Source: Candidatus Spyradenecus sp.
GTDB taxonomy: Bacteria; Verrucomicrobiota; Verrucomicrobiia; Opitutales; UBA953
Assembly (NCBI GenBank): GCA_045535075.1
Contig: JAZSKX010000017.1
Location: 1-64,000, forward strand
Reading direction: 5' to 3'
DNA: 64,000 nucleotides
Made by a program: the position numbers and the translations under genes. The notes under the pieces were generated by a model. That model saw only the letters and a list, made by a program, of their open reading frames with translations. It was not told the DNA's origin and made no database searches. Numbering within the stretch: the first letter of the stretch is position 1; the number at the start of each line of letters is the position of its first letter. Shown here piece by piece: positions 48,427-51,850 of the stretch.

Positions 48427-48490
48427 TTTAAAAAGGTAAAACTGATAACTGATAGTGGATAGGTTTCGTATGTTAAAACTGATAACAAAT

Positions 48491-48844
48491 TTATTCTTCC
48501 AGCTTTTTCTTGGTTGTTTTTACGGAGGAAGTAAGAAGCTTAGCCAATTCAACCACGTCCGGATAAATCGCATCATGCTCACGTGCAGACAAATACTCTC
48601 CGGCAAAAAGCAGTGTTAGCCAATATTGCGTTTCGTTTGCCTCTTTCAATGCAATATTGAGTTTGTGCACAAAATCCCGGCGACTTTGTGCATTCCACGC
48701 CTCATGAACATTCGCCCCTATACTGGTTGCGCTACGCAAAAACTGCTTGGACAGAACAAACTCTTTTTTTTCGTCAGTAAGATAACGATAGAGTTTTACC
48801 GCGCGCATTGCGAAAGCCATAGATTTTTCTCTCAACAAACTCAT
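48491..48844 (-). CDS. Four-helix-bundle (23S rRNA IVP-like) protein
   Basis: KS..FA, LSKQFLRSATSIGAN..EA, S..DF..KL.IALKEA.ET.YWL family motifs. Confidence 0.93.
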   Translation of the reverse strand: MSLLREKSMAFAMRAVKLYRYLTDEKKEFVLSKQFLRSATSIGANVHEAWNAQSRRDFVHKLNIALKEANETQYWLTLLFAGEYLSAREHDAIYPDVVELAKLLTSSVKTTKKKLEE

Positions 48845-48892
48845 GGTAAAACCTATCAGTTATCAGTTATCAGTTTTCCCTTATCGGCGAAG

Positions 48893-50308
48893 CTATTGCT
48901 TTGCTGATGCGATCACTTCGTCGATGGAGCCTTTCATGTAGAAGTGCTGTTCTGCGATATCGTCCACTTCGCCCTTGAGAATCGTGTCGAGCGAGCGCAC
49001 GGTGTCGGCAACGGAGCAGTAAGCGCCGTTCATTCCCGTGAATTGCTCCGCGACGTGGAACGGCTGGGAAAGGAACTTCTGGATTTTGCGTGCGCGCGAA
49101 ACCGTAAGTTTGTCCTCGTCGGAAAGCTCGTCCATACCCAAAATCGCGATGATGTCCTGCAAATCTTTGTATTTTTGCAAAACGGCTTGAACGGCACGCG
49201 CGACGCGGAAGTGGTCTTCGCCGACGATTTGCGGCGTGAGCGCCTGCGAAGTCGAAGCGAGCGGATCAACCGCCGGATAAATCGCGAGCTCGGCGATTTT
49301 TCGGTCGAGAACGATGGTCGAGTCCAAGTGCGCGAAGGTGTTCGCGGGAGCGGGGTCGGTCAAGTCGTCTGCGGGAACGTAAACAGCTTGGAACGAGGTG
49401 ATGGAGCCTTTTTTCGTCGAAGTGATGCGTTCCTGCAGGTTGCCCATTTCCGTCGCAAGCGTCGGCTGATAACCGACGGCGGAAGAGGAACGCCCGAGCA
49501 AGGCGGAAACTTCCGAGCCCGCCTGCGAGAAACGGAAAATATTGTCGATAAACAAAAGAACGTCCTGCCCTTTTTCGTCGCGGAAATATTCCGTCATGGC
49601 AAGCGCGGTCAGCGCGACGCGCATACGCGCTCCCGGCGGTTCGTTCATCTGCCCGTAAACGAGCGCGACCTTGGATTTGGAAATATCCTTCGTGTCGATA
49701 ACGCCGGATTCGCACATTTCGCGGTAAAGGTCGTTGCCTTCGCGGGAACGCTCGCCGACGCCCGCAAACACGGAATAACCGCCGTGCGCTTTCGCGATGT
49801 TGTTGATGAGCTCCATGATGAGAACGGTTTTGCCGACGCCCGCGCCGCCGAACGCACCGACCTTCCCGCCTTTGACGAAGGGGCAAATCAGGTCGATGAC
49901 CTTAATTCCCGTTTCAAGCAGTTCCGCGCCCGTGCTTTGCTCGACGAGCGGCGGCGGGTTGCGGTGAATCGGGTATTTTTTCGTGAAATTCACGTCTCCT
50001 TTGCCGTCCACGGGATCGCCCGTAACGTTGAAAATGCGACCGAGAACGCCTTCTCCGACGGGAGCCTGAATGGGCGCTCCCGTGTCGATAACGTCCATCC
50101 CGCGCACAAGCCCGTCCGTCGTACTCATCGCGACCGCGCGCACAACGCCCGCGCCGAGGTGCTGCTGCACTTCGAGCACGAGGCGCGTCGGAGCACCGTT
50201 GAGGTCGTAATTCACTTCCAACGCGTTGTAAATCGCGGGAATATTTTTTTCGTCAAACTGCGCGTCCACAACCGCGCCGATAATCTGAGTAATCGTTCCT
50301 TTGTTCAT
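48893..50308 (-). CDS. atpD: ATP synthase beta subunit
   Basis: [18 protein letters not shown] and MDELSDED motifs. Confidence 0.99.
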
Positions 50309-50460
50309 AAATTTTAAGAGGTTTTGGTGTTATAAAAAAAGAAGTGTTCCCGCAGATAGATACAAACGTTTCCGGATATTTTTCAAAAGCTTCGCGTTAA
50401 AAACATTCGTGGCGGGTTGTGTTCATTTCTTTAAGCTTTAAGCCCTAAGCACTCAACTTT

Positions 50461-51360
50461 CTATCCTGCGTTGGAGGCGGCGAGTTCGTTGATTTCGTTG
50501 GTGATGGCGGCTTGGCGCGCCTTGTTGTATTCGAGCGAGAGGGAATCGACGAGGTTTTTCGCGTTGTCCGTCGCGGCTTTCATCGCGACCATGCGCGCGG
50601 ACTGTTCGGACGCTTTCGCCTCCAAAATCGCCTGATACAAGCTCTGCTTGAAAAACAGCGCGGGAAGCCCGTCGAGAATCGTTCCCGCGTCGGGCGCGAA
50701 CGACATTTCGCGGTCGTCTTCGAGCAGCTTAAATTCTTCTTTTTTGCCCTGCGCGGCGAACTGCGCCTGCATGCGTTCTTCCAAGTTCCCGAGCGGCACG
50801 AGCGTCGCCATTGTCGGCACCTGCACAATCGTGTTCTTAAACTGCGAAAGCACAATTTCGATCGTGTCGATCGTTCCCGCGAGGTATTCCTTGATCAAAA
50901 ATTCCCCGATCGGGCGCACTTCGGAAAAGTTCACGCGGTCGCTCACGGAAAAGTCCGCCACGAGGTCGCGTTTCGACCGCGCCACGAACTGCGTCGCTTT
51001 TTTCCCGACGGTAAAAAACTTTGCCGGCGTTCCCGCGGGAACGTTTTTGTTCAAAAAGCGAAACAGATTGGAATTAAGCCCGCCGCACAGTCCTTTGTCG
51101 GTTGCGATGACGACGATCCCGCGCGTTTTCACGGGGCGTTCCTGCATGAGCGGATGCGAAAAATCGCCCGACAAATCGAGCCCGCGCAACGCCGTCGCAA
51201 GAATCCGCGAAAGCAGAACCGCGTAAGGTCGCCCGGAAGTTGCGGCGTCCTGCGCGCGGCGCATTTTCGACGATGCAACCAGCTGCATCGCGCGCGTGAT
51301 TTGCCCGGTGTTCGTCACCGAACGAATACGATTTCGAATTTCTCTCAGACCCTTAGCCAT
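50461..51360 (-). CDS. atpG: ATP synthase gamma subunit
   Basis: ITRAMQLVASSK, DKGLCGGLN and YNKARQAAITNEI motifs. Confidence 0.98.
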   Translation of the reverse strand: MAKGLREIRNRIRSVTNTGQITRAMQLVASSKMRRAQDAATSGRPYAVLLSRILATALRGLDLSGDFSHPLMQERPVKTRGIVVIATDKGLCGGLNSNLFRFLNKNVPAGTPAKFFTVGKKATQFVARSKRDLVADFSVSDRVNFSEVRPIGEFLIKEYLAGTIDTIEIVLSQFKNTIVQVPTMATLVPLGNLEERMQAQFAAQGKKEEFKLLEDDREMSFAPDAGTILDGLPALFFKQSLYQAILEAKASEQSARMVAMKAATDNAKNLVDSLSLEYNKARQAAITNEINELAASNAG

Positions 51361-51427
51361 TTTTGAAAAAAGATTAAAGCTTAATGCTTAAAGCTTAAAG
51401 AAAGTGTAAGTTTTAAGAAAAAGCAGT

Positions 51428-51808
51428 TTAAGATTGAATTGATTGTTTGTTGCGACGAAGCCCGCTAAGCATTCTCGCAATTTCCTGAATGAGAGCCCCT
51501 AAGTCCTCAAAGCGTTCCCGCGAAACGTACCCCAAATCCTCCGCCAGTTGAAGTTGGCAAAAAACTTCCATCAACGAACCGTAAGCGATTTCGATAAAAC
51601 GGATTTGATCTTTCGGGGATTCCTTTGCACTTCCTTCAGCAATGTTTGAAGGGACGGAAATCACGGCTCGCCGCAATTGATCCGCAAGCGAAAAACGCTC
51701 CGCTTGCGGGAACGATTCCAACACGGAGTAGACGCGTTTCACCAGCGCGCGCGACTTCTGCCACACAAGCAACTTTTGAAACGAGAAAAATGTGTTGGGA
51801 CTTTCCAT
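51428..51808 (-). CDS. Four-helix-bundle (23S rRNA IVP-like) protein
   Basis: FQKLLVWQKS, FP..ERF.L.DQLRRA.ISVPSNIAEG and IAYGSL.E motifs. Confidence 0.94.
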   Translation of the reverse strand: MESPNTFFSFQKLLVWQKSRALVKRVYSVLESFPQAERFSLADQLRRAVISVPSNIAEGSAKESPKDQIRFIEIAYGSLMEVFCQLQLAEDLGYVSRERFEDLGALIQEIARMLSGLRRNKQSIQS

Positions 51809-51850
51809 CTTCAAACTCTCTTTAAGCTTTAAGCATTAAGCTCTAAGCTT

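Follow-up and report, generated by a model that had tools for sequence, protein, structure and literature searches.

The closest described relative of the elements considered here is the intervening sequence of Coxiella burnetii 23S rRNA (helix 45, S23p), whose stem carries heptamers, the first of which is where RNase III cuts (PMC4990558). Two elements of the same build, here named cassettes A and B, lie in the atp operon of a Candidatus Spyradenecus genome (assembly GCA_045535075.1; G000 below, with relatives' genomes numbered from G001), within the 64,000-nt stretch of contig JAZSKX010000017.1 that was analysed (the window). As in Coxiella, an open reading frame (ORF) of family PF05635 occupies the loop of a stem of roughly 28 bp, the whole measuring about 430–480 nt, and tandem heptamers lie in the stem just upstream of the start codon. 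Unlike the Coxiella element, cassettes A and B stand between cistrons of a protein-coding operon and not in an rRNA gene, there is no detectable host RNase III, the cassettes are swapped among relatives, and gene-less hairpins abound. Whereas the Coxiella ORF is described as decaying and probably not expressed (PMC4990558), ORFs of the A and B types are under purifying selection. Compared with ORF-bearing rRNA intervening sequences as a class, the build is the same, but two defining features, the rRNA location and RNase III, are missing.

Two other bodies of work bear on the locus. Avd, from diversity-generating retroelements (4DWL, 8UB7), is a pentamer whose five protomers hold flipped-out bases of an RNA stem-loop in crevices (bioRxiv 10.1101/2023.10.23.563531), and its homology to PF05635 is noted in a review (PMC10053308). 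Protein A has the same four-helix fold and protein B lies just over the Pfam bAvd cut-off but, unlike Avd, neither gene adjoins a reverse transcriptase; the only one in G000 is DRT4-like and is found on another contig (C2). Intergenic TAACTGA heptamers were described by MacGregor in 2015 (PMC4679880) and proposed as sites of an unknown post-transcriptional regulator. They share with the arms of cassette A both the unit and the position just upstream of start codons, but are treated there as direct repeats, and the main text is silent on four-helix proteins, intervening sequences and S23 (the supplements may list neighbours). A literature search, which left subscription papers mostly uncovered, found no paper tying the four-helix family to heptamer arms outside rRNA, that is, to mRNA cassettes. 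REP and REPIN sequences and miniature inverted-repeat transposable elements (MITEs) are also intergenic inverted-repeat units with gene-bearing and gene-less forms. In contrast to these, and to insertion sequences (IS), neither cassette has a transposase, the arms are built of tandem repeats with a unit that changes along with the protein, and no target duplication was seen by eye at A or B, a closely related empty site being absent for strict comparison.

The preferred reading, which is given about an even chance of being right, is that A and B are selfish junction cassettes, and that a predicted Avd-like ring binds the heptamer arms of its own cassette, with the transcript as the most likely target and no part for RNase III. 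Each unit fills the gap from a host stop codon to the start codon that follows, and is exchanged as a whole among close relatives. Pairing of the arms would leave the upstream stop and the downstream start only ~10–20 nt apart across the stem, and this closeness would limit the cost of the insert to an essential operon. The predicted ring, pentameric by analogy with 2RLD, 2GSC and Avd, would take repeat bases into pockets close to the loop between helices 2 and 3. As the 5' arm lies right beside the start codon of the cassette gene, its binding would be expected to autoregulate that gene. Such a cassette would be a passenger that spreads when short tracts recombine at gene junctions, leaving gene-less hairpins and orphan arms as its relics.

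The anatomy itself is confirmed. An earlier note on this DNA had reported complementary arms around each gene, and the matches were recovered exactly as claimed (26/29 for 48438–48466 with 48849–48877; 27/28 for 51374–51401 with 51819–51846). Among 391 inverted pairs between positions 46000 and 56000, the arms of B and A rank first and second, and only 5 of 2000 random window pairs at similar spacing score 40 or more, the top score of 59 being pair B itself. When the sense strand is folded each cassette forms a closed stem (z of -4.0 and -6.6), with 0/100 shuffles equally good. The cassettes have a G+C content of 40 and 45%, against 57–58% for atpD and atpA. Both genes are co-oriented with the operon, on the minus strand as is atpA-G-D-C, and the two proteins are divergent (23% identity over 92 aa), again as the note had stated. 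Its description of the arms as each gene's own holds in that each gene is flanked, but the arms are not private, since the genome has 52 such arrays and only 7 are beside a four-helix gene. No Rfam family matched in 43000–64000, and promoter and terminator scans gave only chance-level signals. Records of the sequencing runs containing G000, which is 99.45% complete, indicate that the host is a gut bacterium. Coordinates are collected in the table, where the arms have the longer limits given by the search for inverted pairs.

Features of the atp region in the window, in two groups: the cassettes with their host genes, then arms and hairpins elsewhere in the operon.
Feature	Position	Strand	Remarks
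Cassette A 3' arm (downstream)	48433..48466	-	pyrimidine-rich on mRNA strand; stops 6 nt short of atpC start
Gene A	48491..48844	-	117 aa, four-helix bundle, TIGR02436/PF05635; BT_0352 (2RLD)-like lineage; conserved Glu48; E+3 is Asn51
Cassette A 5' arm (upstream)	48849..48882	-	(ACTGATA)n on mRNA strand; ~10 nt past atpD stop, 4 nt before gene A ATG
Cassette B 3' arm (downstream)	51369..51405	-	8 nt before atpG start
Gene B	51428..51808	-	126 aa, four-helix bundle, TIGR02436/PF05635; XCC0516 (2GSC)-like lineage
Cassette B 5' arm (upstream)	51815..51851	-	(GCTTAAA)n on mRNA strand; starts at atpA stop codon
atpC	48013..48426	-	host gene downstream of cassette A
atpD	48893..50308	-	host gene upstream of cassette A; named by sequence and operon order
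atpG	50461..51360	-	host gene downstream of cassette B; named by sequence and operon order
atpA	51851..53377	-	host gene upstream of cassette B; named by sequence and operon order
Orphan B-type 5' arm	50426..50460	-	directly past atpG stop; 83% complementary to cassette B 3' arm
Orphan B-type 5' arm	60886..60914	-	past atpF stop; stacked outside 10-mer-type arms
Gene-less (GTGAATA)n hairpin	61504..61616	-	atpE/atpF junction
Short gene-less A-type heptamer hairpin	61951..61990	-	atpB/atpE junction; read by eye

Both proteins pass the family cut-offs (TIGR02436, 24 bits: A 106.7, B 125.8; PF05635, 33.8 bits: A 98.5, B 131.5). The structure model of gene A has four helices (predicted local distance difference test score 96.8) and a template-modelling (TM) score of 0.91–0.93 to 2RLD, while gene B matches XCC0516 (2GSC) by sequence with an E-value of 5.6e-22; among named records, the one nearest to gene B comes from a Verrucomicrobia genome. 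The relationship to Avd put forward in the note is borne out at the level of fold, as the model of gene A scores about 0.72–0.77 to Avd, with weak E-values. By profile, gene B barely exceeds the Pfam bAvd cut-off (40.8 vs 40 bits) and does not reach the 80-bit cut-off of the NCBIfam Avd equivalog (45.8 bits), to which A has no match. Neither protein was matched by PADLOC. An alignment of 36 diverse homologs has five polar positions without any variation (Q44, S51, N55, E58 and E81, gene B numbering). The ratio of non-synonymous to synonymous substitution rates of orthologous cassette genes is 0.03–0.15 in 10/11 pairs, the remaining pair being saturated, and the cassette genes are under purifying selection. 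A homopentameric ring is inferred for A and B from the five-chain entries 2GSC and 2RLD and from a statement in PMC4990558.

A rival reading, that of the note, takes the cassettes for mRNA intervening sequences: in this host the four-helix protein itself, or another nuclease such as RNase E/G, would cut the stem and free the gene from the atp transcript. The build is that of the element cut by RNase III at its first repeat (PMC4990558), stable stems are predicted for both cassettes, RNase E/G is present in G000, and the five invariant polar residues could form a site. RNase III was not found in G000, however: TIGR02191 gave 0/1, PF00636 nothing over its cut-off, and a profile built from six RNase III proteins of the same family a best E-value of 0.49. 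Across the genus PF14622 is found in 0/19 genomes (G000 and 18 congeners), and in two related genera in 0/11 and 1/20, but in 9/10 genomes of a sister genus and 1/1 of one further genus. Four-helix genes are common in the genera without RNase III, so that the cassettes evidently do well in the absence of the enzyme by which the rRNA version is defined. Excision by RNase III is unsupported in this host because the enzyme was not found in G000 or 18 congeners, and the stem processing proposed in the note is not supported there in the form known from the rRNA elements; this default explanation is removed at least for this genus. Transcript data came from runs X18 and X19 of one study, as assembled contigs only, which may be DNA and in which ends are not resolvable. 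These contigs span the boundaries of gene A with both atpD and atpC and have no clean gene-less join, a weak point against excision given their possible DNA origin. A single X19 contig joining 51790 to 51856 (depth 3.6) was not interpreted. Overall, release of the gene from the transcript is considered quite improbable. With regard to RNase III itself, rnc has apparently been lost in these gut Verrucomicrobiota, and a literature search on such loss found nothing; one genome of a sister genus (G036, L469) has an RNase III gene immediately upstream of its atpC.

Comparison of atp regions from 20 genomes (16 of the genus and 4 of the family) and from G017, with G008 and G009 contributing atpC only, showed variation at both junctions. 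At atpD/atpC a four-helix gene is found in 11/16 genomes of the genus (G000 counted), as three types. The A-like type (81–100% to gene A) has ACTGATA arms and occurs in 5 genomes, a second type, a paralog 55–59% identical to gene A, has GTGAATA arms and also occurs in 5, and the third (62%) has TTAACTC arms of reversed polarity in one (L034, G013). In the remaining 5/16 the junction holds a 10-mer hairpin without a gene (2 genomes), an ORF of another kind, unrelated to these (1), or a plain spacer, 21 nt long in one genome and 161 nt in the other (2). Three of the family outgroups have spacers of 6–14 nt, and the other has a gene-less heptamer hairpin. A B-like gene is present at atpA/atpG in 7/14, a 62–63% paralog with GATTAAA arms in 2/14 and no such gene in 5/14. 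Gene and arms change together, since the cassette types differ in both protein and arm unit at each junction, and atpD remains 96–100% identical while the cassette type varies. The suggestion in the note of a transposase-less unit bounded by its arms is thereby upheld, with both presence/absence and whole-unit replacement found among relatives.

The best resolved replacement concerns G010, which is mostly like G000 along atpD and atpC but has the cassette of G011. It sides with G011 at the last 7 informative sites of atpD (~10 nt) and at atpC sites 7–22 (within the first 22 nt), so that in this one case a swap appears to have altered only about 10 and 22 nt of flank. In run X19 an allele of the G010 type, compared by eye, branches at 48903 beside the G000 type. 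Two peculiarities of single cassettes may be mentioned. The arms of L034 are pyrimidine-rich upstream of the gene, contrary to nearly all other cassettes, and in L033 (G010) the atpA reading frame continues into the 5' arm and takes its stop codon from there.

The same junctions are used by a second, unrelated family. Genes for GxxExxY proteins (TIGR04256) in the genus have 10-mer arms, and four loci hold the junction which in G000 is occupied by the C8 four-helix cassette (matched by eye); overall, GxxExxY cassettes L455, L459, L460, L462 and L463 lie at junctions that have a four-helix cassette or a heptamer hairpin in G000. The two families thus alternate at the same sites.

Several of these observations could also mean that the protein acts on DNA, binding double-stranded or cruciform arms and promoting recombination, inversion or transfer, with RNA pairing incidental. 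Besides the GxxExxY genes with 10-mer arms at these junctions, G007 and G010 have the inner part of the atpE/atpF hairpin in the opposite orientation to G000, G016 and G011 (scores of 84–88 in reverse, 46–50 forward). Degenerate copies come in mirrored order in the two arms (104 cases above and 34 below the shuffled order, n=143), and 19/105 homolog pairs of at least 80% identity lie in unrelated flanks, although these pairs are not independent and stacked arms can mislead. Inversion, mirroring and new flanks show that arms recombine and that cassettes reach new sites; they do not imply the protein as the cause. Inversion at inverted repeats requires no dedicated protein, Avd, the closest characterised relative of the fold, binds RNA, the polarity of the arrays relative to stop and start codons fits a role at the transcript level, and target duplications were not seen at either cassette (by eye). 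Action on DNA is regarded as unlikely, and binding of the arms in the transcript by a selfish cassette's own protein remains the preferred reading.

Arms are a general feature of the family. Among homologs with enough flank for a survey, inverted arms surround 245 of the 292 from four collections, compared to 2/1460 shuffles (genomes of the phylum 107/127, metagenomes 59/64, named genomes of many phyla 58/73, viral contigs 21/28). The period is 7 in 177 of the 245 and 8 in 51. Co-orientation with the host genes (100/137 upstream, 94/126 downstream) was left unused because the count is blurred by antisense ORFs. In a set of A-lineage homologs with Tyr at E+3 (L369, L373-L380, L387-L390, L401 and L407), arms were undetected in the flanking sequence searched.

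If the ring reads its arms, protein and repeat should be linked, and the note had raised the possibility of protein-repeat specificity. From 181 period-7 cassettes, 138 remained after proteins >80% identical were dropped, and the units were registered on an A-purine frame, blind to the protein. For the 52 A-lineage proteins among them the strongest column pair is the residue three positions after the conserved Glu (E+3) with base 5 of the repeat (z 10.3). In this training set Phe or Tyr goes with A (18/18), His with G (7/7), Asn with G (6/8) and Arg or Lys with C at base 5 (5/10). The rule was fixed in writing and then tried on new loci. From 88 held-out ORFs, 7 outside the A lineage, 5 with short flanks, 17 without arms and 3 of another period were set aside, leaving 56, or 50 non-redundant, of which 21 were testable. 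It was correct in 13/21, compared to 7.8 expected (p=0.002), with Phe to A in 6/6, His to G in 5/5 and Arg to C in 1/1; the first held-out set alone, included in the 21, gave 4/6 (p=0.10), which is too small. In a subclade of 46 genes, with the tested codons masked, Phe or Tyr goes with A in 27/27 and His with G in 12/12, each trait changing 8 times. One pair of loci shows the same link: the proteins of L172 (Tyr) and L189 (His) are 97% identical and lie in unrelated flanks, while base 5 is 73% A in the former and 97% G in the latter. Base 5 differs in 11/104 close pairs with the same residue vs 19/42 with different residues (pairs not independent). BT_0352 (2RLD) has Gln at E+3 and is predicted to prefer G. 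A second rule, for the gene B lineage, concerns position E+10, where training gave Phe to T in 27/34 and Tyr to G in 17/21.

A number of points weigh against the preferred reading or its extension to a residue–base code. The Asn to G rule failed on held-out loci (1/9, with seven Asn proteins having A), and Asn is the E+3 residue of gene A itself, for which an Asn match with A-T fits only after a post hoc shift of register. The held-out His and Phe proteins are 59–75% identical to training proteins, so shared ancestry may account for their success. By the score used, 17/81 held-out A-lineage genes are without arms. Only 4 independent pairs lie on supported branches, all concordant (p=0.125) and underpowered, and a broader protein tree gives only 1. 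The E+10 rule gave Phe to T in 11/12 and Tyr to G in 1/2 of held-out cases (p=0.27). Neither cassette encodes a nuclease or recombinase, the signal for short tracts comes from one trio (trios at atpA/atpG have mosaic flanks and no clear tract), and GTGAATA hairpins remain in G000, which has no matching gene. The specificity proposed in the note accordingly has statistical support in the gene A lineage, without its Asn to G part and with a tree-corrected p of 0.125; the link between E+3 and base 5 in this lineage is suggestive, not proven.

A further account does without recognition altogether: slippage would have made the arms, which pass down together with the gene, common descent would explain the residue–base link, and the protein would have an unrelated host function. 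The tree-corrected tests are not significant, the Asn to G rule, set beforehand, failed, and 45/52 arrays in the genome have no adjacent gene, all of which this account accommodates. It sits poorly with the finding that residue class and base changed in parallel eight times and that none of the pairs disagreed, with the 97%-identical His/Tyr pair, with the difference between same-residue and different-residue close pairs (again not independent), and with the absence of the four-helix family from 5/19 genomes of the genus. It is taken to be the least probable of the explanations considered. A bolder version of arm binding by the cassette's own protein is held only tentatively, as possible but on balance doubtful: PF05635 would be a programmable repeat-reading ring, in which single residues (E+3, perhaps E+10) near the helix 2-3 loop specify single bases of the 7-nt unit, and each cassette would recognise, and possibly cut or mobilise, its own arms without RNase III, while GxxExxY nuclease cassettes would be its competitors for junctions in essential operons.

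The significance of the locus lies in bringing together a very large family without a function (PF05635) and intergenic heptamer repeats that are separately unexplained. If the bolder version is true, bacterial intergenic heptamer repeats would gain the missing binding protein, one that MacGregor (2015) looked for, and a residue-to-base code in a small ring protein would, if true, be a new mode of nucleic-acid recognition. The material for a test is at hand, with two proteins and two repeats in one operon and a natural His/Tyr switch pair.

Elsewhere in G000, four-helix genes number four including A and B. The other two also lie between co-oriented genes, which we take to be lolC/E-lolD and gatC-gatA, inside inverted heptamer arms with their own units. 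Period 7 dominates among periods 4–12 (16 arrays vs at most 6 for any other). A strict scan, based on hand-picked unit families and a crude gene finder, gave the 52 arrays mentioned above, none within called genes, and 0 in a block-shuffled genome. Most (44/52) show strand polarity, with 27 purine-rich directly past a stop and 17 pyrimidine-rich directly ahead of a start. The median distance from stop to arm is 0.5 nt, which is partly mechanical because the arms contain stop triplets. Gene-less forms look like relics, since the inner end of the atpE/atpF hairpin is also that of a cassette type with a gene, which G010 and G011 have and G000 has not. The idea that period 7 serves to supply stops in all frames was rejected, as 87/138 units have a sense-strand stop vs 83±4 when shuffled.

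Some neighbouring elements were also considered. A gene-less family of ~190 nt was rejected as a non-autonomous copy moved by the four-helix protein, as it ends in terminal inverted repeats of its own and is bordered by 4-nt YTAA duplications (in 3/4 copies read by eye). It is found at C5:156390-156580 of G000 and at least 7 other sites, with copies 86–95% identical, and degenerate copies lie in the window at 47788–47972 and 43081–43157. This element, which carries a C9-type heptamer hairpin, is probably an IS-type MITE that captured arms, and its movement is for that reason not credited to the four-helix protein. Retro-mobility by a host reverse transcriptase was likewise rejected, because the only one in G000 (L530, C2:18779-21592, 937 aa) is DRT4-like; it has a C-terminal extension of ~420 aa beyond the profile.

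The atp operon of the window has further insertions. Between atpH and atpA lies a 6-kb insert (53404–59432) with five ORFs that have no Pfam or NCBIfam match, and 30 nt around the atpA start are duplicated (53374–53403 and 55876–55905); runs X18 and X1, like the congeners, lack this insert or have something else in its place. A dinD/Bro-N gene between atpF and atpH (59871–60885) has around it three arrays, two direct and one inverted, of the 10-mer type seen elsewhere on either side of GxxExxY genes, and is found at this junction in 4 congeners and absent in others. Finally, the 8-mer CGTTCCCG occurs 5159 times on both strands of G000, compared to about 1200 for the next unrelated 8-mer, and is possibly an uptake-type or HIP-like sequence.

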